Assembly: GCA_013336165.1 (NCBI GenBank)
Contig: JAAXUF010000008.1
Location: 8,743-72,742, forward strand
Origin: Coriobacteriia bacterium
GTDB taxonomy: Bacteria > Actinomycetota > Coriobacteriia > Anaerosomatales > JAAXUF01
DNA: 64,000 bases
Reading direction: 5' to 3'
Position numbers and translations under genes: made by a program. The notes under the pieces were generated by a model, which was not told where the DNA came from, made no database searches, and was given only the letters and a program-made list of their open reading frames with translations. Position 1 is the stretch's first letter. The number at the start of each line of letters is the position of its first letter. Of the stretch, positions 8,929 to 41,259 are shown one piece after another.

Positions 8929-9208
8929 CCACGGCCTTTCGCGACCGTTTGTCCGGTGTGATGTTGGCGCGCAACGCTGTGGGGTTTACACTAACGATAG
9001 GCTCCGCCTTGTTCGTGGCTTGGCGCATACGGTCGAACCAATACTTCTCTATCGGGAGCTTCATATCCTGAGGCGGGAAGGTATCCTTTCCTGATGGAAG
9101 GGAAGCTTCTTTTAGCCGATGTGCGAGCACCCACCTGCTAAGGCAGGTTCACCTTGTCAGGCCACGAACAAGACGAAGCAACCGGTATTCTTTGAGGGAG
9201 GACATCCG

Positions 9209-9769: not shown

Positions 9770-9780
9770 TAAGACGGCCT

Positions 9781-20503: not shown

Positions 20504-20995
20504 TTGACCCTGTCACCGGATCACTACCTTCGCGCGGTTAGCGACATCGACCTTGACGCTTTGGCGGCTCAAGGCATCGACACGCTCCTGATCGATCTCG
20601 ACAATACGCTGTTGCCGCGCGATACGAGTAGGATCTCGGACGAGGCATTCGCTTGGGCCGCCGAGATCAAGAGCCGGGGCTTTCGTGCCTGCCTGGTCTC
20701 GAACAACTGGCATGATCGGGTGTTCAATGCCGCAGACTCGCTCGGGTTCGAACTCGTCTCGAAGGCGATCAAGCCGTTGCCGTTCGCATTCTTGATTGCG
20801 CTCAAGAAGACGGGGTCGTCTCGGCGTCGGGCGGCCGTGATCGGCGACCAGCTTTTCACTGATATCCTCGGCGGGAAGATGCTGGGCATGAAGACGATTA
20901 TGGTGCTGCCACTTTCGCCCAGCGATCTTGCTCACACGCTGCTTCTTCGCCGCCTGGAGCGAGTGGTTCTGGCGGGACGGCAGCCGCTCCCGTAG
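20504..20995 (+). CDS. HAD-superfamily IIIA phosphatase, YqeG-like
   Basis: TTG start. Motif I LLIDLDNTL and motif II LVSNN. It sits just upstream of aroE, as yqeG does in Firmicutes. Confidence 0.7.
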   Translation: MTLSPDHYLRAVSDIDLDALAAQGIDTLLIDLDNTLLPRDTSRISDEAFAWAAEIKSRGFRACLVSNNWHDRVFNAADSLGFELVSKAIKPLPFAFLIALKKTGSSRRRAAVIGDQLFTDILGGKMLGMKTIMVLPLSPSDLAHTLLLRRLERVVLAGRQPLP

Positions 20996-21032
20996 GATGG
21001 ACTGTAGCGTCCTCGTAAGGAGCCGACGAGAA

Positions 21033-21932
21033 GTGCCTCATATCAGCGGGAAAACGAAACTTGCCGGCGTCACCGGCCGGCCCTTGGATCACTCGCTTTC
21101 GCCTGCGATGCATAACGCGGCGTATGAGGATCTCGGCTTGGATTGGGTGTATGTTCCGCTTGAAGTCTCCGACGAGCGCGCGCTGGCCGATCTGGCGGCG
21201 GCGGTTCGGGTCCTCCCGTTCGTCGGATTCAATGTCACCATGCCCTACAAGCAGGCGATGCTCTCTTTGTGTGACGAGGTATCTTCAGAGGCGCGCGCGG
21301 CAGGGGCCGTCAACACGGTTTCACACGCCGACGGTTGGCTCATCGGTCACAACACTGATGGCATCGGACTGCTTGAGTCACTGCGAGTTGATGCGGGCTT
21401 CGATCCGGCAGGCAAGCGAGTGGTACTCCTCGGCGCGGGCGGTGCCGCGCGCGGCGCGCTGGCGGTCCTGTTGCTTGCAGGATGCGAGAGCGTGACCGTC
21501 GTCAATCGCGACATGTCGCGAGCTGAGGCGCTCATCGATGACATGGCGTCGTGGATCGGGTCGGCCGCGGTGGATGCCGCGGAGCTCGGCGACGCCGCCG
21601 AGCAGGTCGCAGATGCGCACCTCGTCATCAACGCCACGCCCTTGGGGATGCGTCCCGATGACGCGAGCCCCGTGCCCATCGAGTGGCTACATGCCGGTTC
21701 CGTCGTCCTGGACATGGTGTACGGCACTCCGCGCCAGACGGCGCTTGTCGAAGGCGCACGCTCACGCGGTGCGATTGCGGTCGACGGTCTCGGCATGCTG
21801 GTGCACCAAGGGGCCGCCGCCATCGACATCTGGAACGCGGCTGCCGAGGGGCCACGCGCGTCGCGTGACGTCATGCGCCGAGCGGCAGAAGATGCGCTTG
21901 CCGTGCGATTCCAGCCCGAGCCGAGAGGGTAG
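21033..21932 (+). CDS. aroE: Shikimate dehydrogenase
   Basis: Contains KLAGVTGRPLDHSLSPAMHNAAY, NVTMPYK and GAGGAARG. The start is a GTG 9 nt after the SD sequence AAGGAG. Confidence 0.9.
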   Translation: MPHISGKTKLAGVTGRPLDHSLSPAMHNAAYEDLGLDWVYVPLEVSDERALADLAAAVRVLPFVGFNVTMPYKQAMLSLCDEVSSEARAAGAVNTVSHADGWLIGHNTDGIGLLESLRVDAGFDPAGKRVVLLGAGGAARGALAVLLLAGCESVTVVNRDMSRAEALIDDMASWIGSAAVDAAELGDAAEQVADAHLVINATPLGMRPDDASPVPIEWLHAGSVVLDMVYGTPRQTALVEGARSRGAIAVDGLGMLVHQGAAAIDIWNAAAEGPRASRDVMRRAAEDALAVRFQPEPRG

Positions 21933-21935
21933 ATC

Positions 21936-23609
21936 ATGGCGGTCACCCGAAGCACACGGCTCGGCAGGATTTTGGTCGGATCCGGTCTGATCAGCGAGAG
22001 CCAGCTTGCACAGGCGCTTGCGGTTTCGGGCGACCGGCCGCTGCCGGGCGTCCTGGAGGAATTGCATTTTGCGAGCGAGATCGCCGTGGCCAAATCGATT
22101 GCCGAGGTCATGCACGTCGATTTCATCGACATCGCGTCATACGATCTTGACCCGAATGCGGCGATCACCCTGAAGCCTGATCTGATGAGACGCCATCGCG
22201 TCTTGCCGGTGAAGATGCAAAACGGCGACCTCATTCTGGCGATGGCCGACCCGGCCGATCTGTTCGCGCTTGACGACGTTCGCATCGCCACGCGTAAGGA
22301 AATTCACCCGGTCGTCGCAGTCGAGCGCGACCTTCTGGCGGCCATAGAGCGTTTCACGGCCTCGCAAACCAACGTGAGCGGGATGGTGGGAGATCTTGAG
22401 GAGAGCGTCGGCTCGAACCTCGAAGACGAAGAGAGTGCCGAGGCGGGCGCGGAGTCGCCGGCTTCGCGTCTCATGAACCACATCGTGACAGATGCGATTC
22501 GCCGAGGGGCCGGCGACATCTACATCGAGCCAGGCGAGAACGACATGCGTATCCGGTTTCGCATCGACGGGGTATGTCAGGTGGTCGACGTCTTGCCCAA
22601 GAAGCTGCACCGCCAGCTCGTGAGCCGCCTGAAGATCAGCGCCGGTATGGACATTGCCGAGAGGCGCGTCCCGCAGGACGGCCGCTTTGGCGTCACCCTC
22701 GACGGCAAGGCGATCGACTTTCGAGTCGCCGTTCTCCCTCTGGTCTACGGCGAGCTGGCCGTGCTTCGGCTACTCAGGCGCGATTCGATCATGATGTCGC
22801 TCACGGACCTCGGCTTTCTTGAGCATAACCTCAAGCAGTTCCTGAACGCTCTCGCGCTGCCGTACGGCGCGATCCTTGTGACCGGGCCGACCGGCTCGGG
22901 CAAGTCGACCACGCTCTATGCTGCGATCAATGAGACGAGCGATCCCACAGCCAACCTCATCACCGTCGAGGATCCGGTCGAGTATCAGCTTGCAGGTCTT
23001 TCGCAGGTCCAAGTGAACGAGAAGGCCGGGCTCACCTTCGCCGCAGCACTGCGCTCGATTCTTCGCCAAGACCCGGACAAGGTGATGATCGGCGAGATTC
23101 GCGACAAAGAGACCGGCACGATCGCGATCGAGGCCGCACTAACCGGCCACTTGGTGTTGTCCACGCTACACACCAACGACGCCCCCTCGGCGATCACGCG
23201 TCTGACCGAGATGGGCATTGAGCCGTTCCTCTCGGCGTCCGCGCTCACGCTGGTGATGGCACAGCGTCTTGCCCGGCGCCTGTGCCCCGACTGCAAAGAG
23301 GTGTATCGGCCGGATGAGGAAGCCTTGCGCCGAATCGGGTTCCCGTTCGAGCCGGGCAAGGTCCCGCAGCTGTATCGGGCGCGCGGGTGCCGCAAGTGCG
23401 GCGGGGTAGGGTACCGGGGGCGTCTTGGAATCCACGAAGTCATGACGATGTCCGAGTCGATCCGCCAGCTGGTGGTCAGCCGAGTTTCCGCCGACGAAAT
23501 CGCAAAGCAAGCTGTGCGCGAGGGGATGCTCACTCTGCGAGACGACGGATTCGCGAAAGTGGCCATGGGTCAGACGTCGATCGAAGAAGTCCTGCGCGTC
23601 GTAGTCTGA
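21936..23609 (+). CDS. pilB: Type IV pilus assembly ATPase PilB/GspE-like, paralog 1 (with T2SSE_N domain)
   Basis: N-terminal T2SSE_N domain (LGRILVGSGLISESQLAQAL). Walker A GPTGSGKSTT, Asp box, Walker B VMIGEIRD, His box, and a tetracysteine motif CPDC...CRKCGG. Confidence 0.9.
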   Translation: MAVTRSTRLGRILVGSGLISESQLAQALAVSGDRPLPGVLEELHFASEIAVAKSIAEVMHVDFIDIASYDLDPNAAITLKPDLMRRHRVLPVKMQNGDLILAMADPADLFALDDVRIATRKEIHPVVAVERDLLAAIERFTASQTNVSGMVGDLEESVGSNLEDEESAEAGAESPASRLMNHIVTDAIRRGAGDIYIEPGENDMRIRFRIDGVCQVVDVLPKKLHRQLVSRLKISAGMDIAERRVPQDGRFGVTLDGKAIDFRVAVLPLVYGELAVLRLLRRDSIMMSLTDLGFLEHNLKQFLNALALPYGAILVTGPTGSGKSTTLYAAINETSDPTANLITVEDPVEYQLAGLSQVQVNEKAGLTFAAALRSILRQDPDKVMIGEIRDKETGTIAIEAALTGHLVLSTLHTNDAPSAITRLTEMGIEPFLSASALTLVMAQRLARRLCPDCKEVYRPDEEALRRIGFPFEPGKVPQLYRARGCRKCGGVGYRGRLGIHEVMTMSESIRQLVVSRVSADEIAKQAVREGMLTLRDDGFAKVAMGQTSIEEVLRVVV

Positions 23610-23756
23610 TCCGGCCCGACACCTTGAGGCCTGCAGTCGACGGACGTTGTGCCTGACCCCCCTTCGTGAGAACATTCGAGCGCGTCCCGACACTTGCCGA
23701 TAATCGAGTGGACCGGGCACACACCGTTGGAGACGAAGACCGAAAGGTACTCTGGG

Positions 23757-24131
23757 ATGAATGCAGTACTTGAGTCTCTCATCGGAAGCGAGCCTGAGAT
23801 AGAAGCTGCGGCATTTGTTCGAGGCGACGGCGCTGTCGAATCCTCAACCTTCCGTTCGAAGGCGCAGGAATCTCGCATCGGGGCAATGGCCGCAGCGATC
23901 GTTGATGTGTGCAATCGTGCTTCCGCCGAAATCGGCCGAGGCGAGCCGACGGAGGTGGCCATCGCGGGTGCGGACGGCTACGTCGCGATTGTCTCGGCGA
24001 AGGATGATAGGTACTTGGTATGTGCGACTTCCTTGGCGGCCGACGTTCGTACCGTGTTGGCAACCATGCGGGTGGTAGTGGATTCGAGCCAGACTGCCGG
24101 AGAGTGCGTCTCGCCGGCTCAACAGGGGTAG
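23757..24131 (+). CDS. Roadblock/LC7 (MglB/CvnB-like) domain protein
   Basis: About 124 aa with an alpha-beta-alpha Robl-like pattern (EIEAAAFVRGDGAVESS...AAAIVDVCNRA...VAIAGADGYVAIV). An alternative start lies at 23694. Confidence 0.6.
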   Translation: MNAVLESLIGSEPEIEAAAFVRGDGAVESSTFRSKAQESRIGAMAAAIVDVCNRASAEIGRGEPTEVAIAGADGYVAIVSAKDDRYLVCATSLAADVRTVLATMRVVVDSSQTAGECVSPAQQG

Positions 24132-24146
24132 GGGCGAGCGCTCCAC

Positions 24147-25310
24147 ATGGCACTGCGCGGCAATCTTCAGGATTTCAGCCTTCCGGATATCTTTCAGCTG
24201 GTGTCATACAGCAGAAAGAACGGGGTGCTACACCTGCACGGTGCTGACGGCCTTACCGGTGACGTCATGTTCCGAGAAGGCCAGATCGCCCATGCTAGGA
24301 GCGACCGGTGGAAGGAGCCGCTGGGCGAGCGGCTTGTACGTTCGCGCAAGATATCGCGCCAAGACCTCAAGTGCGCTCTCGAAATCCGAGATCATGGCGA
24401 CTCGGATGACAGGCGTCTCGGGCGGATCCTTATCGACACCGGCTGTGCGAGCGAAGATGTAGTCACGGACTTCGTTCGCGAGCAGGTACAGGAGACGGTT
24501 TTCGATCTCATGCAGTGGGAGGAAGGCGACTTCAGCTTCGAAGCGACTTCCGATGTCGTGGACGAAGATGTCGGCCCGGCACTCTCCATCGAGAACATCA
24601 TCATGGAGGGCAGCAGGCGGCTGGAGGAGTGGACCACCATCCGACGCAAGATCCCGTCGGCCGAGGTGGTGCTGGGGTTGGCTATCGCACCAGGGGACGG
24701 CGACGTCGACATCTCACTGAAGCCCGCTGAGTGGGCCCTGATGCCGTTCATCGACGGCCGACGCTCTGTCGCTACCATCGCATTTGAGTCCGGGCGCACG
24801 GAGTTCGAGGTCGCCAGAACGCTCTACGGGTTGCTGGGCGCCGGGCTGCTCGAGTTCGCCGAGACCGATGTCGACAGCGAGCAGGAGCCGCAAGCCGATC
24901 TCGCTGTCGTGACCGAGGAGCCGGTGCCCGCACAGGAAGAGGCGGAACTCGAACCGGAACCCGAACTAGAGCCGGAACCCCAACCCGAGCCGGTCTTCGT
25001 GATAGACGAACCCATCTACGAGACACTGCCGGTGGCCGAGCCGGAGATGCCGGCGGTCACCTCGCCTGAGGATGTGCCGCAAGGTCCACCACTCGCCCTC
25101 TTTGACGCCGAGCAGCCCGAGCCGACACCGGTATCCTTCGAGGGACTCGGCGAAGAGTTGTCTGCTCTGACTGGTGCAGAGCGCCGGGTGCGCCCGGAAG
25201 CACGGTCAGCGCCGGAACCGGACAGCCAACCCCGGGAGCCGTTGCGTTCCCGTTCTCAAATCAACAAGGACACTCTTCTCAAGGTCATAAATGGCCTGCG
25301 GAAGCTGTAG
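24147..25310 (+). CDS. DUF4388-like domain protein with an acidic P/E-rich disordered C-terminal half
   Basis: The N-terminus LRGNLQDFSLPDIFQLVSYSRKNGVLHL matches the DUF4388 signature. A second related block is present (PFIDGRRSVATIAFESGRTEFEVARTLYGLL), followed by EPEPELEPEPQPEP repeats. Confidence 0.55.
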   Translation: MALRGNLQDFSLPDIFQLVSYSRKNGVLHLHGADGLTGDVMFREGQIAHARSDRWKEPLGERLVRSRKISRQDLKCALEIRDHGDSDDRRLGRILIDTGCASEDVVTDFVREQVQETVFDLMQWEEGDFSFEATSDVVDEDVGPALSIENIIMEGSRRLEEWTTIRRKIPSAEVVLGLAIAPGDGDVDISLKPAEWALMPFIDGRRSVATIAFESGRTEFEVARTLYGLLGAGLLEFAETDVDSEQEPQADLAVVTEEPVPAQEEAELEPEPELEPEPQPEPVFVIDEPIYETLPVAEPEMPAVTSPEDVPQGPPLALFDAEQPEPTPVSFEGLGEELSALTGAERRVRPEARSAPEPDSQPREPLRSRSQINKDTLLKVINGLRKL

Positions 25311-25325
25311 AGAGAGCAAGGGTAC

Positions 25326-25850
25326 ATGCATTCGCTCAAGGTCGTCATCGTTGGTCCGGCGGGCTCCGGCAAGACGACGTTCATCGGCGCAGTGAGCGAG
25401 ATCACCGTGCTTTCGACCCGCCGCGAGATCGGTGCGGGTGGCAAGGATGCGGCGGACCGCATTGCGGTAGACATGGACTTCGGCCGGGTCACCCTTGCCG
25501 ACGACATCGTTCTCTACCTCTTTGGCACACCGGGGCATGAGCGCGTTTCCTTCATGTGGGAGACTCTTTCCGAGGGGTTGCTCGGCTTCGTGGTGCTGCT
25601 CGACAGTGAGAATTCGGCGTCTCTCGAAGAGGCCCGCGAGACAATTGCGTTTCTGAGGGGTGACTCCGAGTTGCCATTTCTGGTCGCGGCGAACAAGCTT
25701 GCACCGGATGACGCAGCGGCCGTCAAGCATTTGCGCACGTCGCTGCACCTGCCCGATGACATTCCGCTTGTTTCGGTAGATGCAAGAAGCAGAGAATCGG
25801 CAAAGCTAGTCCTTGAAGGTTTGGCGCAAGAAGCAGTGAGGAGAGGTTAG
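25326..25850 (+). CDS. Small Ras-like GTPase (MglA / CvnD 'ATP/GTP-binding protein' family)
   Basis: G1 GPAGSGKT, G3 FGTPGHERV, and an NKxD-like ANKLAPDD motif. 174 aa. Confidence 0.65.
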   Translation: MHSLKVVIVGPAGSGKTTFIGAVSEITVLSTRREIGAGGKDAADRIAVDMDFGRVTLADDIVLYLFGTPGHERVSFMWETLSEGLLGFVVLLDSENSASLEEARETIAFLRGDSELPFLVAANKLAPDDAAAVKHLRTSLHLPDDIPLVSVDARSRESAKLVLEGLAQEAVRRG

Positions 25851-26300
25851 ATGACCCCGGAGTTGAATCGGATCGCCCTTGTCGGCGGAGCGGGTCTCCT
25901 GCTGGTCGTCGCCATGATGGTGCTGATCGTCTCGGCTGTCCGTGGTTCCCGGGCACGGAAGCGGCAGAAGGCTGCGGCGGCGCAGTATGTCGCACCGCCC
26001 GAGAGCGGGCAGTCTCCGGCTCCGGCCGAGCCCCCGGTATCGCCTCCGGTCTGGGTTCAAGCCGAGGAGCCCCTGGCCCCGGAGCCTGTCGGCACGGCCG
26101 TTCTCCAGGAGATCGAGCCCGCCGACTTCTCCCCGGAAGAAGTGCCAGTCAAGTACGCGATGACCGCGCCGGCGGAGATGTGGTTCGACGATCTTCACGT
26201 CGGCGTCAAGGCAGAAAGCGTCACCGCCGAGCGTCTGCGCTACTATGCTGACATCCTATTGGATGAGGTACATAACTCCTCGTCGAAGCGCGAGCAGTAA
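25851..26300 (+). CDS. Hypothetical single-pass membrane protein with a P/E-rich linker
   Basis: The start abuts the GTPase stop (TAGATG). It has a TM helix (IALVGGAGLLLVVAMMVLIVSAV) and no recognised family. Confidence 0.45.
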   Translation: MTPELNRIALVGGAGLLLVVAMMVLIVSAVRGSRARKRQKAAAAQYVAPPESGQSPAPAEPPVSPPVWVQAEEPLAPEPVGTAVLQEIEPADFSPEEVPVKYAMTAPAEMWFDDLHVGVKAESVTAERLRYYADILLDEVHNSSSKREQ

Positions 26301-26321
26301 GCGGTCCAAAGAGAGGTTCTC

Positions 26322-27995
26322 TTGGCAGACGCGGCACAAAGGCTCGGTGAACTACTCGTTCGGGCGGGCGTCATCACGGCCAGTCAGCGAGACGACGCCG
26401 TCCAGGTCCATGTCGCAACGGCTTCCCCGCTTGGCAAAGTGCTGGTTGAACTGGGCTATGCCAGCCACGGCGCGATCCTCGCGGTGGTGGCAAAGCAGAT
26501 CGGCATCGAGTACATGGATCTGAGCGAGCGTCGCCCCGAACCGGGCGCCGTTGCGCTCATACCGCGCGAAGTTGCGACGCGCTACATGCTGATGCCGCTC
26601 GAGATTCGGGGCAACACTCTTCTGGTTGCCATGGCCGATCCACAAAACGTGCTCACCATCGATCACGTCAGGATCATCACCGGGCACGAGATCAGACCCG
26701 CGATCTCGACGAAGAATGACATCCTTGAGGCGATCCGGCAGTACTACGATGTTGCCGATCGTGACGACAGTGACCTGCGCCTAGAAACAGACGAACCGGA
26801 CGACGAGGAACTCGGCCAGTTGGCGGACGTCGAGTCCGAGGCGCCTGCGGTCAAGCTCGTGAACTACATCATCCAGAAGGCCGTCAACGACCGGGCCTCA
26901 GACATCCACATCGAACCGCAACAAGATGAACTGCGCGTGCGGTTCCGGGTGGACGGCGTGCTCGTTGAAGCGACACCGCCGATCCCGAAGTCTACTCAGG
27001 CATCCATCATCTCGCGGTTCAAGATCATGGCCGACATGGACATCTCGGAGTCGCGTCGGCCTCAAGACGGCCATTGCTCAGTATCCGTGGGCGGGCAAAA
27101 GCTCGATGTGCGAGTCTCGTCGTTGCCGACGGTTTTTGGCGAGCGCATGGTCTTGCGTCTCCTGCGCAAGGACTCGATCCTGCTGCAGCTCTCGGATCTG
27201 GGCTTCCTGCCCTCGGCGAAGGACCGCTTTGAAGCCGCTTTCACCAAGCCGTACGGCGCGGTCTTGGTCACGGGTCCCACCGGTTCAGGCAAGTCGACCA
27301 CGCTCTACGCTGCGGTCAATGTGCTCAACGACCCGTCCCGCCACATCATGACCGCCGAGGATCCGGTGGAGTACCGGCTCGCCGGCGTGAATCAATGCCA
27401 GGTGAACCCCAAATTGGGAATGACCTTCGCGCGAGCGCTGCGATCGTTTCTGCGCTGCTCTCCCGATGTGATCTTGGTGGGGGAGATCCGCGACCAAGAA
27501 ACGGCCAAGATCGCGATTGAGTCCGCGCTCACGGGACACTTAGTGCTCTCGACACTGCACACAAATGACTCCGCATCCGCGATCACTAGGTTGATCGAGA
27601 TGGGCGTCGAGCCGTTTCTGGTCTCGTCGGCTGTCGATTGCGTGCTCGCGCAGCGTCTTGCGCGGCGGCTATGCCCAGAATGCCGACAGGCGTGGACGCC
27701 GGAATCCGGGGCGCTCATTAAACTGGGCTACGATGCCGATAGTCTTCCCGACGTCGTATACCGGGCCGTGGGTTGCAGAAAGTGCGGCGGCACCGGCTAC
27801 AAGGGACGCTTGGGAGTTCATGAGGTTCTCTTGGTTTCCGACGAGATCAGGAGGCTGTGTGTTTCTGAAGCGTCAGTAGAGGAAATCAGACGCACCGCCA
27901 TTGAGCAGGGCATGAGGACATTGCGGCAGGACGGTCTTGAGAAGGTTCGACAGGGTCTGACGTCGGTTGAGGAAATCGTTCGTGTGATAGTGTAA
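26322..27995 (+). CDS. pilB: Type IV pilus assembly ATPase PilB/GspE-like, paralog 2 (with T2SSE_N domain)
   Basis: Same length (557 aa) and about 60-65% identical to paralog 1 across the ATPase core. Walker A GPTGSGKSTT and tetracysteine motif CPEC...CRKCGG. Confidence 0.9.
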   Translation: MADAAQRLGELLVRAGVITASQRDDAVQVHVATASPLGKVLVELGYASHGAILAVVAKQIGIEYMDLSERRPEPGAVALIPREVATRYMLMPLEIRGNTLLVAMADPQNVLTIDHVRIITGHEIRPAISTKNDILEAIRQYYDVADRDDSDLRLETDEPDDEELGQLADVESEAPAVKLVNYIIQKAVNDRASDIHIEPQQDELRVRFRVDGVLVEATPPIPKSTQASIISRFKIMADMDISESRRPQDGHCSVSVGGQKLDVRVSSLPTVFGERMVLRLLRKDSILLQLSDLGFLPSAKDRFEAAFTKPYGAVLVTGPTGSGKSTTLYAAVNVLNDPSRHIMTAEDPVEYRLAGVNQCQVNPKLGMTFARALRSFLRCSPDVILVGEIRDQETAKIAIESALTGHLVLSTLHTNDSASAITRLIEMGVEPFLVSSAVDCVLAQRLARRLCPECRQAWTPESGALIKLGYDADSLPDVVYRAVGCRKCGGTGYKGRLGVHEVLLVSDEIRRLCVSEASVEEIRRTAIEQGMRTLRQDGLEKVRQGLTSVEEIVRVIV

Positions 27996-28033: not shown

Positions 28034-29242
28034 ATGACGACATTTGCATACGCGGTCAGGGACAAGTCCGGCAAGGTTGTGAAGGGCAAGCTTGACGGTG
28101 AGAGCCAAGCGGCTGTCCAGAGCAAACTCTCCCAAATGGGCTACATCATTCTCGAGCTGAGACAGCAAAGTGCGCTCATGTCGTTCGGGGCAATCAAGAT
28201 CGGCGGCAGCGTCAAGCCCAAGGAAGTCACGATCTTCGCACGTCAGTTCTCCACGATGATCCATGCGGGGCTCTCGCTCACGAAATGTCTGACGATTCTG
28301 TCGCAGCAGACCGAGAGTGCAGCGCTTAAGGAAGTCATCGCTCAGATTGGGAAGGACGTCGAAGCCGGGCAGTCGCTATCTGAGGGGCTTGCTAAGCATC
28401 CCAAGGTCTTTCCCCCGATCTTCGTAAGCATGACCCGCGCCGGAGAAATCGGTGGTGTTCTGGACGAGGTCTTGGCTCGTGTGGCGGATCACCTTGAGGC
28501 CGAACAGGCTCTCAAAGGCAAGATCAGGTCCGCAATGATGTATCCGATCGCGATCGGATGCCTAGTAGTCCTCATCCTGGCGGCAATGCTGATCTTCGTG
28601 GTTCCCATATTTGTTGAGATGTTTGCGGGCATGGGAGGTACGCTTCCCCTGCCTACCCAAATCCTCGTAGACTTTTCCAATTTGGTCACGAGTTTCTGGG
28701 GCCTTGTGATTCTAGCTGCGATCATCGCTGTGATCTGGTTTTTTCGCTGGTGGTCCAAGGGGGCGGGGAAGCTGGCGTGGGACCGGATCAAGCTGGGCAT
28801 GCCTGTCTTTGGGCCCCTGGTTCGAAAGATTGCTCTGGCTAGGTTCAGCCGGACCTTTGCGACACTGGTTTCCGCCGGTGTTCCGATCCTTCAAGCACTG
28901 GACATAGTCGCTGAGACATCGGGTAACGAGGTGATCTCTCTTGCTGTGAAGAAGTCGCGTGCTGCCATCAAGGAGGGCGAGACTATTGCCAAGCCGCTGT
29001 CGGAATCTAAGGTCTTCCCCCCGATGCTTGTTCAGATGATCAGCGTAGGCGAGGAAACCGGTGCGTTGGACACCATGCTCAACAAAGTTGCTGAGTTCTA
29101 CGATGAGGAGGTCGCCTCAGCAACGGATGGGCTGACATCGCTGATTGAGCCGCTCATGATGGTTACGCTCGGTCTGATAGTGGGAGGTATGGTGATAGCT
29201 CTGTACCTTCCGATGTTCAATGTGATAGCGTTAGTCAAGTAG
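28034..29242 (+). CDS. pilC: Type IV pilus inner-membrane platform protein PilC (two GspF/T2SSF domains)
   Basis: Two T2SSF repeats with 3 TM helices; typical length of 402 aa. Confidence 0.9.
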   Translation: MTTFAYAVRDKSGKVVKGKLDGESQAAVQSKLSQMGYIILELRQQSALMSFGAIKIGGSVKPKEVTIFARQFSTMIHAGLSLTKCLTILSQQTESAALKEVIAQIGKDVEAGQSLSEGLAKHPKVFPPIFVSMTRAGEIGGVLDEVLARVADHLEAEQALKGKIRSAMMYPIAIGCLVVLILAAMLIFVVPIFVEMFAGMGGTLPLPTQILVDFSNLVTSFWGLVILAAIIAVIWFFRWWSKGAGKLAWDRIKLGMPVFGPLVRKIALARFSRTFATLVSAGVPILQALDIVAETSGNEVISLAVKKSRAAIKEGETIAKPLSESKVFPPMLVQMISVGEETGALDTMLNKVAEFYDEEVASATDGLTSLIEPLMMVTLGLIVGGMVIALYLPMFNVIALVK

Positions 29243-29366
29243 GGGGGTGGTTTCATCGAAGACTCTTGGCGTGTCTCAAGTTTCGCGTCCATGCGTCGAT
29301 ATAGGAACTACAAACACAGTGGGCGAACCCACGCAGGTCCCCAAAAGGGGAAGGAGACTCGAGGAA

Positions 29367-29747
29367 ATGCAAGCATTTCGCAAGAACGATGAAGGCTTCA
29401 CGCTCGTAGAACTCATGGTCGTCGTTTTGATCATCGGTATCTTGGTCGCCATCGCGATCCCGGTATTCAACAACGCCAGCAACAACGCGCGTATCAAGTC
29501 TTGTCAGGCCAACATGCGAACCATTGAAGGCGCCTACCAGACGTACATGGCCAACAACGGCACGGCCATCACTGCCGCAACTACGGTTGTCTCGGGCGGG
29601 ATCTTGGTTCCGGGCTTCATTGCCGCTGTGCCTGCGTGTCCCTCCGATCCGAACTTCGGAACCACCACCGCCAAGACCCCCTACAGCTTGGCTACAACTG
29701 GCTTGACGGCCTGTCCGATCGTGCCTCTCACTCACATCCACTACTAG
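29367..29747 (+). CDS. Type IV pilin (prepilin with class III signal)
   Basis: The leader MQAFRKNDEG|FTLVELMVVVLIIGILVAIAIP carries a cleavage/methylation motif. 127 aa with 4 Cys in the C-terminal half. Confidence 0.85.
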   Translation: MQAFRKNDEGFTLVELMVVVLIIGILVAIAIPVFNNASNNARIKSCQANMRTIEGAYQTYMANNGTAITAATTVVSGGILVPGFIAAVPACPSDPNFGTTTAKTPYSLATTGLTACPIVPLTHIHY

Positions 29748-29754
29748 CATGCGA

Positions 29755-29810
29755 GACTCGCTGCCAAGGGTTCGCGGTTGGGTTTGTGCCGCGGCCCGTG
29801 GCAGCGAGTC
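29755..29810 (+). promoter_or_regulatory. Two-tier intergenic stem-loop between the tandem pilin genes (possible attenuator or terminator)
   Basis: A perfect 12-bp stem gactcgctgcca (29755-29766) pairs with tggcagcgagtc (29799-29810). The 32-nt loop contains an inner gcgg/ccgc stem. Confidence 0.5.
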
Positions 29811-29855
29811 CCTAAGGCGCGGCGATGTTTCCGAAGAAGGGGAAGCTGTACAGTT

Positions 29856-30236
29856 ATGATCAACTGGAGAAGACGGAACGAAGGTTTCACGCTCGTAGAA
29901 CTCATGGTCGTCGTTTTGATCATCGGTATCTTGGTCGCCATCGCGATCCCGGTGTTCACGAACGCCAGCAACAACGCGCGTATCAAGTCTTGTCAGGCCA
30001 ACATGCGAACCATTGAAGGCGCCTACCAGACGTACATGGCCAACAACGGCACGGCCATCACTGCCGCAACTACGGTTGTTCAGGGTGGGATCTTGGTTCC
30101 GACCTTCATTAAGGCGCCGCCCGTGTGTCCCTCAGATCCGAACTTCGGAACCACCACCGCCAAGACCCCCTACAGCTTGGCTACAACTGGCTTGACGGCC
30201 TGTCCGATCGTGCCTCTCACTCACATCCACTACTAG
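29856..30236 (+). CDS. Type IV pilin, tandem near-identical copy
   Basis: Leader MINWRRRNEG|FTLVEL.... The mature region is more than 90% identical at the nucleotide level to the upstream copy. Confidence 0.85.
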   Translation: MINWRRRNEGFTLVELMVVVLIIGILVAIAIPVFTNASNNARIKSCQANMRTIEGAYQTYMANNGTAITAATTVVQGGILVPTFIKAPPVCPSDPNFGTTTAKTPYSLATTGLTACPIVPLTHIHY

Positions 30237-30340: not shown

Positions 30341-31171
30341 ATGGGATTGGGTGGATCAGTGGCTGCGTATGTCCTTCTGGCGGCTCTAGGTTTTGTCTTT
30401 GGCTCATTCGCAAACGTCGTCATTTGGCGTCTTCCGCGCGGTGAATCGCTGAACCACCCTGGCTCGCATTGTCCAAAATGCAGTTCGTCAATTGCATGGT
30501 ATGACAACGTTCCGGTGCTCTCCTACATCTTCTTGGGCGGGCAGTGCAGGGTGTGTGGTGCTCGTATATCACTGCGCTATCCGATCGTTGAGCTGCTCTC
30601 GGCGCTGTTGTGGCTCGCCGCCGGAATTCGGTTTGGTATCACGCCTCAAGCTGCGTTCGCTATGGTCTTCTTCTTTCTTCTGCTCATCCTTGCCTTCATC
30701 GATATCGACACCATGCGTCTGCCTAACGCTCTCACGGCACTGCTGTTCGTGATCGGCGCCATCGGCGTGGGTGTCGCTCAATTTGCTCAAATGGCGCTGG
30801 TTCCGCTCCTGCCGGTTGCCGCTCTACCATGGGGGCCGGGTGTCTCTGCCCTGATCGGGGCGAGTCTGTCAGCGGGTCTGGCGTTGGCAATTGCCGCGGC
30901 GTATGGCAGTTTGAGGAAGACCCAAGGCTTCGGCATGGGCGACGTGAAGCTATTGGGGGTCATCGGCGTCTTCCTTGGCTTGTATGGCCTCATGGTCTTC
31001 TTCTTGGGCAGTGTGATGGGGGCGGTGTACGGCGTGATCGTGGCGCGCCGTAGCGGTGGATCGTTGCAGCATAAGTTCGCCTTCGGGCCGTTTCTGGCTC
31101 TCGCTGCAGTGTTGGTGACGTTGTTCGGACCAACGCTGTGGTATTCCTACCTTGGCATCTTCGCGGGATGA
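30341..31171 (+). CDS. pilD: Prepilin peptidase / N-methyltransferase (A24 family)
   Basis: A zinc-binding CPKC...CRVCG N-terminal region precedes a multi-TM body with catalytic Asp residues. Confidence 0.88.
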   Translation: MGLGGSVAAYVLLAALGFVFGSFANVVIWRLPRGESLNHPGSHCPKCSSSIAWYDNVPVLSYIFLGGQCRVCGARISLRYPIVELLSALLWLAAGIRFGITPQAAFAMVFFFLLLILAFIDIDTMRLPNALTALLFVIGAIGVGVAQFAQMALVPLLPVAALPWGPGVSALIGASLSAGLALAIAAAYGSLRKTQGFGMGDVKLLGVIGVFLGLYGLMVFFLGSVMGAVYGVIVARRSGGSLQHKFAFGPFLALAAVLVTLFGPTLWYSYLGIFAG

Positions 31172-31263: not shown

Positions 31264-32388
31264 TTGGCTCGATCATCTTTTGGCGCTGCACCACTGCCCG
31301 TTGGTCTTGATGTGGGGACTGACAGGATTCGAGTGGCTCAGATCAAGCAGAGTGGTATCGGCAGGGCGCTGACTGCCTATGGATCGATCACGATGCCGCT
31401 CGGTGCCACGGTTGAGGGGGAGATCATCGATCCGACGATCGTTTCCTTGGCAATCAAGAACCTATGGAGAAGCGTAGGCCTTCGCTCCAAAGAGGTTTCG
31501 ATTGGCGTCTCGAACCAGAAGGTCATTGTCCGTCTGATTGACTTGCCATTCATGGACAAAGACGAACTCGCTGGGGCAATCCAGTATCAAGCTCAAGACT
31601 ACATCCCAATTCCCGTAGAAGATGCTGTACTCGATTTTCAGATTCTTGGCGATTACATGACGCCATCTGACGAGCACATGATGGAAGTGCTTCTCGTCGC
31701 TGCGCAGCGAGACATGATCGCCAATGTCGTTGCCGCGGTTGAGGGGGCGGGTCTACGACTTGCCTCTATCGATGTCACTGCGTTCGCACTGGTTCGGGCG
31801 CTGCTGGGCACGGAAACCTCATGGCTGGCCACGGAGTTCAACGATCCAAGCCAGGCCTTGGGGGTCGTGCACATCAGTTCAGGATTGACCACGATCGTGG
31901 TGCTAGAGCGAGGGATTCCGCGGTTCACCAGGGTTTCCTCTCTTGCCGGCAACCAGATGACACAAGCGGTTGCGACCGCTCTCAACATCACATTTGATGA
32001 GGCAGAAGCAATCAAGATCAAGGTCGGGCTGCCAAGTATGGACGGCACGCCCACCATCCCTGAGGGCGTCGACCCGGCTCAGGCGCAGGCCGCGCAGGAG
32101 ACAATTGAACGCGAAGCGGGGAAGTTGATCGCCGAGATCCGTCGTTCTTTCGACTACTACCTCACTCAGGCTAACGGGGTACACGGTGTCCAGAAGGTCT
32201 ATCTGACCGGCAATGGTGCACTTATGGGCAACCTGCCGGCGTATATGGAAAAAGGGCTGCAAGCGGAGGTGTGCTTGGGCGATCCGCTTGCGCATGTGCA
32301 GATTGCGGCTGCGGTTGAGCACTCCGTCGTCGCAGACCGAATGGGCTGCGCGGCTTCGATCGGTCTGGCACTTGGGGGTACCTTCTGA
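31264..32388 (+). CDS. pilM: Type IV pilus assembly protein PilM (actin-like ATPase fold)
   Basis: TTG start after the RBS gggaggggg. PilM/FtsA-like fold (VGLDVGTDRIRVAQI). Confidence 0.8.
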   Translation: MARSSFGAAPLPVGLDVGTDRIRVAQIKQSGIGRALTAYGSITMPLGATVEGEIIDPTIVSLAIKNLWRSVGLRSKEVSIGVSNQKVIVRLIDLPFMDKDELAGAIQYQAQDYIPIPVEDAVLDFQILGDYMTPSDEHMMEVLLVAAQRDMIANVVAAVEGAGLRLASIDVTAFALVRALLGTETSWLATEFNDPSQALGVVHISSGLTTIVVLERGIPRFTRVSSLAGNQMTQAVATALNITFDEAEAIKIKVGLPSMDGTPTIPEGVDPAQAQAAQETIEREAGKLIAEIRRSFDYYLTQANGVHGVQKVYLTGNGALMGNLPAYMEKGLQAEVCLGDPLAHVQIAAAVEHSVVADRMGCAASIGLALGGTF

Positions 32389-33680: not shown

Positions 33681-33689
33681 GGGCAGACG

Positions 33690-37538: not shown

Positions 37539-37583
37539 ATACACTTGACTGGGATGTTCGGCAATGGGGATGCGGATTTGGAC

Positions 37584-39296
37584 ATGAGGAAACATGAAGA
37601 CGGGTTCACCGTAGCCGAGGTACTCATCTCCTTGGCGATCCTTCTGATTGTGGTAATGGGCGTGCTGACGGCGCTCGAGTACTCCGCGTGGACCACCCAG
37701 CAAAATGCGATGCGGCAGGGTGCCGTTGAGTTGGCCAATAAGACGCTTGAGAAGGCGCGAACGATTCCCTATGCCGAGCTGGGCACACACTACCCGGACG
37801 GCACGTATGGCGACCCTCCAGGATCCATTCCAACCAGTACGACTGTGGGCGACTACACGGTCGTGACGAGCGTGTCTTGGGTGCGAGATCCTGTTTCGCA
37901 CAGAGCGACATACAAAGATGTACAAGTGACGGTCTCGTGGCAGAAGCCGCATGCGTCAAGCGTATTTGTGGAGACGGGCGTCTTTGGCAAGAACAGCTAC
38001 GTCAACAGCGGCGACGTCCAGATCCACGTTCTTGATGCCGACGATCTTAGTGCCCAGATCGCGGGCGCAGCGGTTACACTCACGCCAGCCACCGGAGTGA
38101 CCCGATGGGAGACTACACTCACAGACGGAATCGCCTTCTTCGGCTACGTGCCATCGGGGGCCACAGGCGTGGCGGCCGCTCTCACGGGGTGGATGGCAGA
38201 CCTCACCGCTTTCGGCGCGAAGACGGTCAACACTGACTCACTCAATGACTGGGCGCTCCTGATGCAGCGCGAAAGCGATGCAACCATCTACGTTGTTGGC
38301 GCTCCGAGCGGCTCGCCGATAGCGGGGGCAACGGTAACCCTGACGAATAATGAGCGATCACTCATCTATTACGGCACATCAAATGCGGCAGGGGCGGTGA
38401 CCTTCCCTCAACTATGGAAGGCAACTGGCGCCGGGTACACGGTGTTGGTGACCTATCCCGGCCGTGATAATGGTGTCGCGTCATTCACAATCCCCAGCGG
38501 CGGGTATCACGCCAGCCAGACTGTGACGATTAACGACCCTACGTCGTTCGTGGTGTCCGTGAAGGATGCGGCCACGAATGCTGTGGTGGCAGGCGCGCAG
38601 GTCACCGTGCGTGACTCGGTCAATGCCCATGTCCCCGGGAGTCCCGGTGTCACAAGTGCAGGCGGCACGGCTTCATTCCAGATCAATCAGACCGGCACCT
38701 ACACGGTCACAGTCGCTGCGACGGGATACACGACTTCGGTCACTTCCACCAACATCTCCGCGGGAGTTGGCGCCGTCACCTATATGGTCGCGTTGGCGCC
38801 GCCGACCTATCTCAGGGTGACGTGCAAGGACAGCGTGTCGAACCTTCCCATCGCAGGGGCGAGCGTCACGGTGGGCAGTACAACGCTGACCACCGATAGT
38901 AGCGGGAACGCCCTCTTCACAATCACGGCAACGGGTACGTATGCCATCAATGCGACTGCGAGCGGCTACCAAGGCTACTCGGGATCGCAGTATGTTGCAT
39001 TGGGCTCGGGCACAGTAGCCCATTCGGCGAGCATGGTTCCGGCGCCGACAACGGGGTCACTGCGAGTGCATGTTACGCGTTGGTGGGACGGGGATCCTCG
39101 AGACGATGTGCAGGTGACCCTTTACAGGGGTAACACGCAGGTAGCAACTCAGAGGACGGATAGCGATGGTTACACCACTTTCACTAATCTCGCCCCTGGT
39201 ACGAACTATAGAGTCAGGAGAACCAACTACAACACCTATTTCGGCTACTTCACCGTGACCGCCGGCTTGACCACGACCGCCGAAGTGAGCTGGTGA
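37584..39296 (+). CDS. Large prepilin-type minor pilin/adhesin with about five repeated beta-domains (CarboxypepD_reg/Ig-like)
   Basis: A cleavage/methylation site (HEDG|FTVAEVLISLAILLIVVMGVLTALE) is followed by a repeating pattern (G)A.VT(L/V)...G..T....G.A.F..L..G.Y.V. Confidence 0.75.
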   Translation: MRKHEDGFTVAEVLISLAILLIVVMGVLTALEYSAWTTQQNAMRQGAVELANKTLEKARTIPYAELGTHYPDGTYGDPPGSIPTSTTVGDYTVVTSVSWVRDPVSHRATYKDVQVTVSWQKPHASSVFVETGVFGKNSYVNSGDVQIHVLDADDLSAQIAGAAVTLTPATGVTRWETTLTDGIAFFGYVPSGATGVAAALTGWMADLTAFGAKTVNTDSLNDWALLMQRESDATIYVVGAPSGSPIAGATVTLTNNERSLIYYGTSNAAGAVTFPQLWKATGAGYTVLVTYPGRDNGVASFTIPSGGYHASQTVTINDPTSFVVSVKDAATNAVVAGAQVTVRDSVNAHVPGSPGVTSAGGTASFQINQTGTYTVTVAATGYTTSVTSTNISAGVGAVTYMVALAPPTYLRVTCKDSVSNLPIAGASVTVGSTTLTTDSSGNALFTITATGTYAINATASGYQGYSGSQYVALGSGTVAHSASMVPAPTTGSLRVHVTRWWDGDPRDDVQVTLYRGNTQVATQRTDSDGYTTFTNLAPGTNYRVRRTNYNTYFGYFTVTAGLTTTAEVSW

Positions 39297-39949
39297 GTCG
39301 ATTGACAATCAGGTGGCGCGAGCGCAAAGGCGAATTGGGCGGCGACGCGGGGTTCACCCTAGTCGAGTTGATGATTGCGGTCAGCTTGCTTTCGCTCGTG
39401 TTGGCGACTGCGTATATGGTTCTCAATAGTGTCAGTTCGATGAGTGACCGCGTCTCGGCTCGCGAGATGGCAGCATCCAGTGCGAACTTGGCGATCGAGC
39501 GAATGACGCGTGAACTCCGGCAGGCGCAGGAGTTGTCAACCGCCGAGGGTGCCGGGGTCTTCAGATACAACGAGCCGCAACGTGCATCGTTCTATATTGA
39601 CTTAGATCACAACGGCACGCCGGAACGCGTGACCTACTACGTCTCGGGAACCACGCTCTATCGGACGGTCGCCGTAGCTACGATCACGTATCCGGGCGCG
39701 GGGAACTTCGGTGCCGATAGCGCTCCAACGGCGGTGCTGAGTGGCTTGGATCCGGGGTGGACGCCCAATGTGTTTGTCTACTACGACAACAGCAGTGTTC
39801 CGGCCGTGGTCAGCTCCGCGAATCCGGACGAGGTTTCGGCGGTCGAAATCACCGTCGTCGCACAGGGACGATCCGGATCCATCACCGCCTCTGCCACGAG
39901 CACGACCTGGGTCAGGATTCGCTCAGTTCATAACGACATCGCTTACTAA
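39293..39949 (+). CDS. Prepilin-type minor pilin (PilV/PilW-like)
   Basis: The GTG start overlaps the upstream stop (GTGA). Leader ...GGDAG|FTLVELMIAVSLLSLVLATAYMVL. Confidence 0.75.
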   Translation: MSRLTIRWRERKGELGGDAGFTLVELMIAVSLLSLVLATAYMVLNSVSSMSDRVSAREMAASSANLAIERMTRELRQAQELSTAEGAGVFRYNEPQRASFYIDLDHNGTPERVTYYVSGTTLYRTVAVATITYPGAGNFGADSAPTAVLSGLDPGWTPNVFVYYDNSSVPAVVSSANPDEVSAVEITVVAQGRSGSITASATSTTWVRIRSVHNDIAY

Positions 39950-39966
39950 AGCTGGAGAGAAGAGCC

Positions 39967-41259
39967 ATGGATACCCTGCGCATCAAGCGTGAGATACGGA
40001 AAGCGGTGCACCTCGCGCGTGCTGACGACGGGATGGCGCTGGCAACCGTGGTCGTGATCTCGGCGATTCTGTTTATGCTGGTGACCACACTCCTTGTGGT
40101 GGTTGCACAGCAGCAGCTTACGACCTCACATACTGTCGCAAGGGCTAAGGCGCTCCAAGTTGCGGATTCCGGAATTGACGCTTATCTCTACCACATGAGG
40201 CAGAACACGACCTACTACTCCACCAATCCCGTGTTGGGACCGGTTGCAACCACTGAAGGCATGTTCACCGTCACCGCCACGCCACCAACGGGCAACGGGC
40301 CCATCATCTTGAGATCCGTCGGCACCATACCATCCCTAGGGGCCACGAAAAGCATAGTCGCCTCAGTCAGATACCCAACCTTTGCTGACTATGTGTTCCT
40401 GTATGATACGGACATCAGTATCGGCTCTGAAGCCACCATTATTGGCAAGGTCAGAAGCAACAGAAGCATCGACAACGATGGCGTGATCACCGGTGCCTGC
40501 ATCGCGGCCGATTCCATCACGGGAAGTGGTTCGTTTGGCAGCAGGCAGCCCGACTCGCCAGTCATCGACTTCTCGAGCGTCTTGACCGACATGGGCCAGA
40601 TGAAGACCACGGCACAGGGGACATCCACGTATTTCGCGTCGTCGGGCACTCGCGGCTACCGGGTTATCCTGAACGGCATGAACTTCAGCGTTGCGAAGGT
40701 GACTGCTGTGAACAGTTCAACAGGCGCCCTGACTCTGGGAACCGCGACGAACTACTCGATTCCCACGGCAGGAATCCTCTATTTCAATGACACTATCTGG
40801 CTCAGCGGAACGTACTCGACAAGAGTCACTGTTGCATGCGGCGATACGAGCGTCAACGACCCCGGCTATGCGACTCCCGTAGACGATTCGGCCGTGTTCA
40901 TTCTGGACAACTTGGTCCCCCAGGATCCATATGGCACGGCGGTCTGCGGTGTCGTTGCGCTCGGGGATATCAGCGTACCCAGTTGGTACAGTTCGATGCC
41001 GCAGGATCTGACGATCCAGGCCGCCCTTCTCTCGCAGGCCGGCGGTATCCATGCTGACTGGTCTTCTGCGAGGAACAAGGACAGCTTCCACTTGATCGGA
41101 TCTAGGGCGCAGAAAGGCGAGGGAGGTTTCGTGAGCGGCTCCATGGGCTTCATGTCGCGTGTCTACGAGTACGATGCTCGACTCGACACAAACCCGCCGC
41201 CCAGCTTCCCGGTTGTGAGAGACGGTGCGCTCAAGGTCAGTACGTGGGTCGAGAACTGA
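39967..41259 (+). CDS. PilX N-terminal domain protein (pilus-associated, membrane-anchored)
   Basis: A TM helix (MALATVVVISAILFMLVTTLLVVVAQQQL) is followed by a PilX_N-like segment (ARAKALQVADSGIDAYLYHM). The domain downstream of it is large and unassigned. Confidence 0.6.
   Translation: MDTLRIKREIRKAVHLARADDGMALATVVVISAILFMLVTTLLVVVAQQQLTTSHTVARAKALQVADSGIDAYLYHMRQNTTYYSTNPVLGPVATTEGMFTVTATPPTGNGPIILRSVGTIPSLGATKSIVASVRYPTFADYVFLYDTDISIGSEATIIGKVRSNRSIDNDGVITGACIAADSITGSGSFGSRQPDSPVIDFSSVLTDMGQMKTTAQGTSTYFASSGTRGYRVILNGMNFSVAKVTAVNSSTGALTLGTATNYSIPTAGILYFNDTIWLSGTYSTRVTVACGDTSVNDPGYATPVDDSAVFILDNLVPQDPYGTAVCGVVALGDISVPSWYSSMPQDLTIQAALLSQAGGIHADWSSARNKDSFHLIGSRAQKGEGGFVSGSMGFMSRVYEYDARLDTNPPPSFPVVRDGALKVSTWVEN

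Follow-up and report, generated by a model that had tools for sequence, protein, structure and literature searches.

Why should a pilus locus keep two full-length PilB-type ATPases, and no ATPase of the PilT retraction type with them? The question is raised by a 64,000-nucleotide stretch from a Coriobacteriia bacterium (assembly GCA_013336165.1, contig JAAXUF010000008.1, positions 8,743 to 72,742 of the forward strand), hereafter called the window. Its type IV pilus locus contains two + strand genes for PilB-type ATPases of 557 amino acids each, pilB1 at 21936..23609 (ATG start; product B1) and pilB2 at 26322..27995 (TTG start; product B2), which are separated by a four-gene module encoding a Roadblock/LC7 protein, a PATAN protein, a small GTPase and a membrane protein. 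The answer that we favour, tentatively and at somewhat less than an even chance, is that B1 and B2 are two differently regulated extension motors of the PilB type serving one monoderm type IVa-like pilus machine. An earlier sequence-only reading of the same DNA had already recognised the two ATPases of equal length, each with a T2SSE_N domain and a tetracysteine motif, the GTPase module between their genes, and the lack of a PilT/PilU-like ATPase in the window, and all of this was borne out. The locus is a conserved, previously undescribed variant of a known pilus machine, and our literature search found no published description combining Coriobacteriia, type IV pili and PilB. The pilus field has yet to explain why some bacteria maintain several PilB homologues, a question to which a section of a 2024 review is devoted (PMC11656802).

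Both paralogs belong to the PilB class. In Pfam, B1 and B2 match T2SSE with 447 and 459 bits and MshEN/T2SSE_N (PF05157) with 75 and 78 bits, respectively, and the best NCBIfam model for both of them is that of PilB, TIGR02538 (604.7 bits for B1 and 626.3 bits for B2). Both scores are under the trusted equivalog cut-off of 675.65 bits; this model consists mostly of diderm PilBs, and the shortfall weakens a strict equivalog assignment and leaves the clade unchanged. Aligned end to end with solved PilB/PilF structures, B1 reaches 481-491 bits and B2 507-565 bits, against only about 100 bits with PilT structures. Proteins of the PilT/PilU type have about 350 amino acids and no N1 domain, score above 319.1 bits with TIGR01420 and carry an AIRNLIRE-type motif; B1 and B2 are much longer, possess the N1 domain and score 158 and 182 bits with TIGR01420, and an AIRNLIRE-like C-terminal motif is found in neither of the two families. 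The N1 domain and the tetracysteine zinc motif mark the PilB/GspE clade and are absent in PilT/PilU (PMC5424180). The earlier reading had considered that one of the two might belong to some other system, as GspE or as a competence ATPase; this holds for neither, given that PilB is the best model for both and that both genes lie in one type IV pilus gene cluster with pilC, pilins, pilD and pilMNO. GspE was ruled out by TIGR02533 (574 and 595 bits, cut-off 630) and ComGA by NF041000 (250 and 265 bits, cut-off 300), in each case together with gene context, and TfpB by NF053534 (430 and 447 bits, cut-off 850); no secretin or com gene was found among the window open reading frames scanned with Pfam. 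Judged from their sequences, B1 and B2 would both serve as extension motors.

The two enzymes also look catalytically active. In alignments of 121 sequences for each family, the Walker A Lys, both Asp-box Glu, the Walker B Glu and Asp, both His-box His, two Arg fingers (which map to R271 and R286 of Geobacter metallireducens PilB, GmPilB) and the four Cys (CxxC...CxxC) are 100% conserved in B1 and B2 alike. Identity amounts to 78-79% within each family and to about 50% between them. The invariance of the catalytic residues and this within-family identity argue that both paralogs are under strong purifying selection, and the earlier view of an old and maintained duplication therefore stands. 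That one of the paralogs might be a pseudo-enzyme was rejected, the catalytic residues being invariant in both families.

The difference between the paralogs lies elsewhere. They are 48% identical over their full length (BLASTP), and the 60-65% quoted in the sequence-only reading fits the catalytic domain alone: the identity is 32% in the N-terminal (N1) region and 47% in N2D, and it rises to 61% in the C-terminal ATPase domain. Since the N-terminal domain is conserved at 75-84% within each family and at 32% between the paralogs, the divergence is concentrated in the N-terminal regulatory domain, which reviews describe as the region of specificity and regulation (PMC11656802). This domain carries the MshEN motif for binding of cyclic di-GMP (c-di-GMP), defined as two tandem 24-residue elements of the form (R/K/L)LGxx(L/V/I)(L/V/I)xxG(L/V/I)(L/V/I)xxxxLxxxLxxQ, with a 5-residue spacer and a Gly at position 3 of each. 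The corresponding model NF053729 (MshE-type c-di-GMP motif, cut-off 38) is matched over its whole length by B2, with 39.7 bits, and by B1 over the first motif alone, with 26.1 bits. Gly occupies position 3 of motif II in 99% of B2 family members, whereas in the B1 family Gly is at 0% and Pro at 85%; B1 has moreover an acidic residue at position 7 of motif II, where the motif calls for a hydrophobic one, and a spacer of 4 residues against 5 in B2. The backbone amide of the motif II Gly makes a hydrogen bond to the guanine base of c-di-GMP (PMC11731258). The motif pair of B1 resembles GSPII-A of PilF, which pairs a conserved motif with a degenerate one, the c-di-GMP binders found in that protein being GSPII B and C (PMC11731258). 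From these motifs we infer that B2 is probably c-di-GMP-responsive and that B1 probably is not.

At sites that hardly vary in other PilBs, B1 has seven fixed substitutions and B2 has five, a few indel columns not counted. The family-specific replacements of B1 in N2D include SDIH to GDIY, L214C and others.

Comparison with related loci situates the two genes. The order aroE-pilB1-Roadblock-PATAN-GTPase-X-pilB2-pilC, in which X stands for the membrane protein of the module, is found in all nine related contigs examined (L001-L005 and L084-L087), so that the pairing is no accident of the window; one of them, L087, matched at 62-67% identity, has the same locus on a contig ridden with frameshifts. 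Protein searches returned at least 120 clusters at 69-77% identity with B1 and, self match aside, at least 120 clusters at 71-77% with B2. These matches are mostly metagenomic, the few named ones being metagenome-assembled genomes of Coriobacteriia, and 12 contigs appear common to the two match lists. Among representatives at 50% identity the whole B1 family forms one isolated cluster, and the next full-length matches are at most 51% identical. The nearest representatives at that level (P0241-P0254) include many proteins of about 1000 amino acids with two T2SSE ATPase stretches, which may be fused PilB-like ATPases or merged gene calls.

As outgroup we used some 80 metagenome contigs from Acidimicrobiia, Solirubrobacterales and other Actinomycetota, whose upstream synteny is that of the window: sigma factor, alaS, ruvX, yceG, aroE. 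The last of these genes, encoding shikimate dehydrogenase (window 20928..21932, + strand; Pfam Shikimate_dh_N, Shikimate_DH and SDH_C), anchors the pilus locus on its left side in a conserved way and lies directly 5' of pilB in nearly all related loci; the aroE-pilB linkage is kept across many Actinomycetota loci. Nearly all outgroup loci read aroE-pilB-pilT-pilC, and their short ATPases are true PilT, as seen in L017 and L007 (494 and 489 bits with TIGR01420, cut-off 319).

Three kinds of outgroup locus that depart from this order are informative. In the metagenome contig L168 (6299-14126) the order is aroE-Roadblock-PATAN-GTPase-X-like-pilB-pilT-pilC. The four genes of the module, whose PATAN protein shares its insertion and C-terminal motif with that of the window, stand there directly 5' of the pilC-side pilB; unlike the window, the contig has a single PilB and a PilT, and its module proteins are 36-41% identical to those of the window. 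This order is a possible ancestral-type arrangement, and it indicates that the module is an accessory of the pilB preceding pilC and is not specific to a two-motor locus. In L160 (8375-14060), L169 (4611-10286) and L170, the order is aroE-pilBa-pilBb-pilT-pilC behind the same alaS-ruvX-yceG-HAD-aroE segment. These loci also keep two full-length PilBs, and differ from the window in that pilT is retained, the Roadblock-PATAN-GTPase module is missing, the MshEN motifs are intact in both copies and the pair is 63% identical, compared with 48% in the window. Orthologues of the a or of the b type share 73-75% identity, against 62-65% for a versus b, the L160 pair is joined with 95% bootstrap, and this lineage appears to have undergone a separate duplication. 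Hence, a second PilB can be retained alongside PilT. In L007, from Acidimicrobiaceae, a PATAN gene (8836-9798; DUF4388, 49 bits) lies between aroE and pilB with no adjoining GTPase or Roadblock gene, so that the linkage of PATAN to type IV pili is wider than the full module.

Synteny with the outgroup and with L168 places B2 in the ancestral pilB slot, identifies B1 as the added copy and shows that the locus no longer contains pilT. Of the two paralogs, B2 is the more canonical and B1 the more divergent. Neighbour-joining trees with bootstrap were built, the first set with 95 taxa and the second with closer outgroups added. They nest B1 and B2 in the actinobacterial aroE-linked PilB group (98% bootstrap). 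B1 and B2 are each 50-55% identical to outgroup PilBs, compared with 48% to each other, a relation which suggests that both may have evolved at an accelerated rate after an old split. Tandem pilB-pilB arrangements in loci of Planctomycetota/Omnitrophota and pilB-pilT-pilB arrangements in loci of Verrucomicrobiota/Kiritimatiellae (L043, L071, L073, L078; L033, L052, L079) indicate that two PilB-type genes per pilus locus arose several times.

With respect to PilT itself, a tblastn search of the 64-kb window with both ATPases found no third ATPase of the superfamily, PilT/PilU included. In this lineage pilT has disappeared from the position that it occupied ancestrally, between pilB and pilC. 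A protein search started from the PilT of L160, the closest lineage with this gene, gave 21 clusters at 66-94% identity followed by a plateau at 61-63% labelled 'Actinomycetota bacterium'; among the 120 nearest matches none was labelled Coriobacteriia and no contig was common with the B1 and B2 match lists, which is weak evidence, the search being blind to any PilT at or below 62% identity to the query. Cultured Anaerosomatales are non-motile rods covered all over with pili-like appendages (PMC9686372), a phenotype that hints at non-retractile pili, although the link of these isolates to the locus is unverified. No information on pil genes was found in that paper on Anaerosomatales (OPB41) or in its supplement (PMC9686372).

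The module between the two ATPase genes would be a regulatory switch. Its first gene encodes a Roadblock/LC7 (MglB/CvnB-like) protein (23757..24131, + strand; Pfam Robl_LC7, E = 2e-9); the mechanical start of the open reading frame is a TTG at 23694, and alignment with relatives places the probable start at the ATG at 23757. Its closest PDB entries are 7f8m and the Streptomyces CvnB5 structure 3leq. The PATAN (DUF4388/PatA_N) protein (24147..25310, + strand) passes PF14332 with 115 bits (cut-off 25) and has an alpha-helical insertion in the PATAN domain (residues 57-126) that is homologous to the N-terminal four-helix bundle of PilB (E = 1.7e-4 against 5tsg); its sole matches in PDB are the N-termini of PilB, PilF and MshE. 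An MshEN-type c-di-GMP motif in the insertion (residues ~57-113) reaches 32.9 bits, under the cut-off of 38. The insertion is followed by an acidic, Pro-rich linker and by conserved C-terminal motifs, ELSALTGA.R and DTLLKII.GI(K/R).L, that match no known family. PATAN domains bind PilB1 and PilC in Synechocystis and co-occur with the PilB N-terminal domain PF05157 (10.1101/2021.06.11.447907), and genes resembling mglA and mglB are known neighbours of PATAN genes (PMC4316618).

The third gene (25326..25850, + strand) encodes a small Ras-superfamily GTPase of putative MglA/CvnD type with generic matches: Pfam ATP_bind_1, Arf and Ras, TIGR00231 (small_GTP) below its cut-off, and weak PDB matches to Arl, Sar and Ras. 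The Roadblock gene stands two genes upstream of it. The P-loop GPAGSGKTT is intact, while G3 reads FGTPGH and G4 NKLA, where relatives have FGTPGQ, an MglA-like TxxGQ G3, and NKVD. The last product, protein X (25851..26300, + strand), was recognised from its sequence as a membrane protein and gave no Pfam or NCBIfam match. Its N-terminal transmembrane helix is followed by basic residues, a Pro-rich linker and, at the C-terminus, a conserved domain of about 45 residues that belongs to no known family and contains the motif APxEMWFGxxxVGVK...YAD.LL. Across six loci conservation is confined to the helix and this domain. Protein X is a candidate membrane anchor of the module. The Pro/Glu-rich linkers of protein X and of the PATAN protein vary several-fold in length among relatives, with a total of 149-533 amino acids for X and of 387-813 for the PATAN protein.

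Gene spacing gives further indications. The aroE stop is 3 bp from the pilB1 start, and the module genes, pilB2 and pilC follow one another at 0-38 bp (38 bp from pilB2 to pilC). The sole sizeable intergenic gap of the locus comprises the 147 bp between pilB1 and the Roadblock gene (23610..23756); the same junction measures 150-170 bp in relatives and, in L084, which comes from a 2.82-Mb contig (GCA_053578315.1; 4600-6960), contains three toxin-antitoxin pairs, two of the Unstab_antitox type and one PhdYeFM/ParE. A promoter and terminator scan and RNA folding of the gap gave nothing above background and no consensus element. From the spacing of the genes, the gap is probably an operon boundary that separates an aroE-pilB1 unit from a module-pilB2-pilC unit. 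B1 is nevertheless encoded within the same gene cluster, 4.4 kb upstream of pilC.

These elements can be assembled into a working model. Both motors would use one PilC/PilM base, on which they would dock one after the other or in cooperation, and would answer to different regulatory inputs. B2, in one operon with pilC and the four-gene module, would respond to c-di-GMP, whereas B1, translationally coupled to aroE and with the second c-di-GMP half-site lost, would be independent of it. The Roadblock protein might act in a GAP-like role (GTPase-activating protein) towards the putative MglA/CvnD-type GTPase, and the PATAN protein would probably bind the motor or the platform, as cyanobacterial PATAN proteins do with PilB1 and PilC. 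The GTPase switch would control this PATAN adaptor, and protein X would tether the module to the membrane.

Several observations weigh against this model. The first is that pilT is missing exactly where a divergent second PilB has been fixed, which would also fit a replacement of PilT. The window B2 has an Arg at position 17 of motif I, where its family has Leu, and c-di-GMP binding is in any case predicted from the motif. B2 has, family-wide, a His at the equivalent of GmPilB R257 and RCSPD in place of RQDPD, and these replacements at near-invariant sites indicate that it is not simply the unchanged ancestral enzyme. The GTPase of L084 (8791-9318) has Asp for the catalytic Gln, NQRG for NKxD and has lost the P-loop Lys of GK[ST]; this erosion of the catalytic motifs means that the switch may not cycle as proposed. 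Across the sub-lineage of the window the GTPase motifs are eroded while both PilBs are fully conserved in the same genomes. Finally, a sister relationship of B1 and B2 had to be dropped, its neighbour-joining bootstrap falling from 68% with the 95 taxa to 33% when closer outgroups were added.

The alternative that survives best is that B1, or less likely B2, took over retraction, or that the two form a forward/reverse pair replacing PilT, with the module timing the exchange of hexamers. The absence of pilT from the window and from a slot that is occupied in more than 70 outgroup loci speaks for it, as do the fixation in the same lineage of a second PilB that is strongly conserved and yet divergent, the B1 replacements at near-invariant N2D positions, and the L160-seeded search that met neither a Coriobacteriia-labelled PilT nor a contig common with B1 and B2. 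In Tad systems a single member of the ATPase family, CpaF, reportedly drives both directions. However, B1 bears no PilT signature, scoring half of what the PilT model demands and being devoid of the AIRNLIRE motif, and it has retained both N1 and the zinc tetracysteine, which are typical of the PilB/GspE clade. The L160-type sister lineage keeps pilB-pilB-pilT-pilC, so that retention of a second PilB does not in itself imply a retraction duty, and the L160-seeded search would not have seen a more distant PilT. The non-motile piliated Anaerosomatales described above (PMC9686372) hint at an absence of twitching, with the reservation already made on their relation to the locus. On balance, the replacement of PilT by a second PilB, which had been put forward in the sequence-only reading, comes out weakened, and we regard it as unlikely.

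A farther-reaching version of the same idea holds that PilT has been lost genome-wide, that B1 is the retraction motor or a reversible one, and that exchange on PilC is gated by a membrane-tethered GTPase/Roadblock/PATAN switch reading c-di-GMP. It seems to us distinctly unlikely as a whole. The notion that the GTPase module chooses which motor is engaged is weakened by L168, where the same module stands upstream of a single pilB accompanied by pilT.

Could the two ATPases instead power different filaments or substrates, for example one the major pilins and the other a filament for which the giant minor-pilin set acts as primer, or one a pilus and the other a secretion pseudopilus? Such a division of labour would agree with the tandem of major-pilin genes (29247-29747 and 29778-30236, + strand; Pfam N_methyl, both encoding the prepilin motif EGFTLVELM) and with the minor-pilin cluster lying apart from them (37545..41259, + strand; Pfam N_methyl and CarboxypepD_reg), and also with the N1 domains, the presumed sites of docking on the base, which differ as much as stated above. 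MshE and PilB of V. cholerae, as well as PilB1 and PilB2 of C. perfringens, do serve distinct machines (PMC11656802). However, the window encodes one copy each of pilC (28034..29242, platform protein; Pfam T2SSF, 223 bits), pilD (30341-31171; Pfam A24_N_bact/Peptidase_A24), pilM (31264-32388; Pfam PilM_2), the pilN-like gene (32388-33050, between pilM and pilO) and pilO (33063-33680; Pfam PilO), all on the + strand and counted with tblastn, and where machines are separate, pilC at least is usually duplicated. With 81% identity, the tandem of major pilins is a recent duplication, far younger than the ATPase split. The minor-pilin set consists of a 583-amino-acid pilin with CarboxypepD_reg/SpaA-like domains, a 218-amino-acid pilin and a 430-amino-acid protein, and is displaced in the window downstream of aroC-aroK-aroB-aroQ; in L084-L086 the minor-pilin genes form part of the pilus operon and stand between those of the major pilins and pilD (L084: 13977-17401), which marks the separation in the window as a local rearrangement and not a second system. 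The proposal of different filaments, which also came from the earlier reading, is thereby weakened, and we give it only a small chance.

An equally small chance is given to the idea that B1 and B2 are obligate partners, assembled in mixed, stacked or sequential hexamers, with complementary substitutions that keep either from working well alone. The near-invariant positions at which replacements have become fixed differ between the two families, and both genes are present on every contig examined. The Arg-to-His change of B2 at the R257 site concerns a residue which, in the open ATP state of GmPilB, makes a salt bridge to the Asp-box Glu of the neighbouring packing unit (PMC5424180), and interactions between ATPases, including possible PilB-TfpB hetero-oligomers, have been discussed (PMC11656802). 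The two genes are nonetheless apparently in different transcription units, given the 147-bp gap and the toxin-antitoxin insertions that it has received in L084, and the full set of canonical catalytic residues in both proteins implies that each should be active on its own. We know of no demonstrated hetero-hexamer of PilT-like ATPases. Both PilT and PilU form homohexamers (PMC6821130).

Two extension motors on one machine, as we favour for the window, are not without precedent. In A. baylyi, PilB and TfpB are two extension ATPases acting on one type IVa pilus machine, for which a division into one priming and one processive motor has been proposed (PMC11656802). The likeness consists in two PilB-type ATPases and one platform; the A. 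baylyi pair differs in its independent origin, in its diderm host, in the presence of PilT/PilU and in having no GTPase module between the genes. A second comparison is offered by Clostridium, where, in contrast to the window, either PilB comes with a PilC and a locus of its own, and where PilT exists as well. Like the window, C. perfringens is a monoderm case with two PilB paralogs, and its PilB2 binds c-di-GMP via MshEN (PMC11656802).

The module, in turn, recalls three known systems and coincides with none of them. The MglA/MglB pair of M. xanthus (with SgmX and SofG) likewise links a Ras-like GTPase and a Roadblock partner to type IVa pilus motors; its mgl genes, however, are encoded apart from the pil operon, and the task of the system is the sorting of PilB and PilT between poles, while the window GTPase matches Ras/Arf weakly and the Roadblock protein is nearer to CvnB5. 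A homologue of RomR, SgmX or FrzS was not seen, although no search was aimed at them. Cyanobacterial PATAN regulators such as PixE, PixG and others use PATAN as the output domain that binds PilB1/PilC (10.1101/2021.06.11.447907). Unlike these, the window PATAN protein has no REC domain, and its presumed input is the GTPase, possibly c-di-GMP, and not phosphorylation. The Streptomyces conservon (CvnA-D) also encodes a Roadblock protein (CvnB) together with an ATP_bind_1-type GTPase (CvnD) (PMC4316618); in the window there is neither a CvnA histidine kinase nor a CvnC/DUF742 protein, and a PATAN protein and a single-pass membrane protein are found instead.

The remainder of the locus can be described briefly. 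The window has a G+C content of about 62%, and nearly all genes around the pilB pair are on the + strand. The pilus locus (20504-43030) is embedded in shikimate genes. According to the lists of open reading frames and the Pfam/NCBIfam scans, a HAD hydrolase gene immediately precedes aroE, aroC, aroK, aroB and aroQ lie between the pilO region and the minor-pilin set, and pepP and efp come behind the latter. The mechanical open reading frames of the two major pilins carry long N-terminal extensions, and their true starts are probably internal, shortly before EGFTLVELM. After pilO comes an open reading frame of about 190 amino acids (33684-34250) with a single transmembrane segment and a stretch rich in Ser/Thr, which may encode an additional component for alignment or an accessory one; L084 has a 207-amino-acid gene at the same place.

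As regards the biology of these organisms, A. baylyi is the sole studied case of two extension motors on one machine, and the locus described here would be a natural, strongly conserved second example in a monoderm actinobacterial lineage. It offers useful contrasts, namely one paralog with a c-di-GMP site and one without, a GTPase/Roadblock/PATAN module within the operon, and a PilT missing from a slot that sister lineages keep filled, and relatives supply natural 'controls' in the form of the module with one PilB and PilT and of two PilBs with PilT. Should pilT be found elsewhere in the genome, the finding would reduce to a regulatory variant. If B1 were responsible for retraction, it would be the first retraction by a member of the PilB/GspE clade. 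If PilT proved to be absent genome-wide, the system would allow one to study, in subsurface anaerobes, pilus dynamics that do without PilT, or else adhesive or conductive pili that stay extended permanently.

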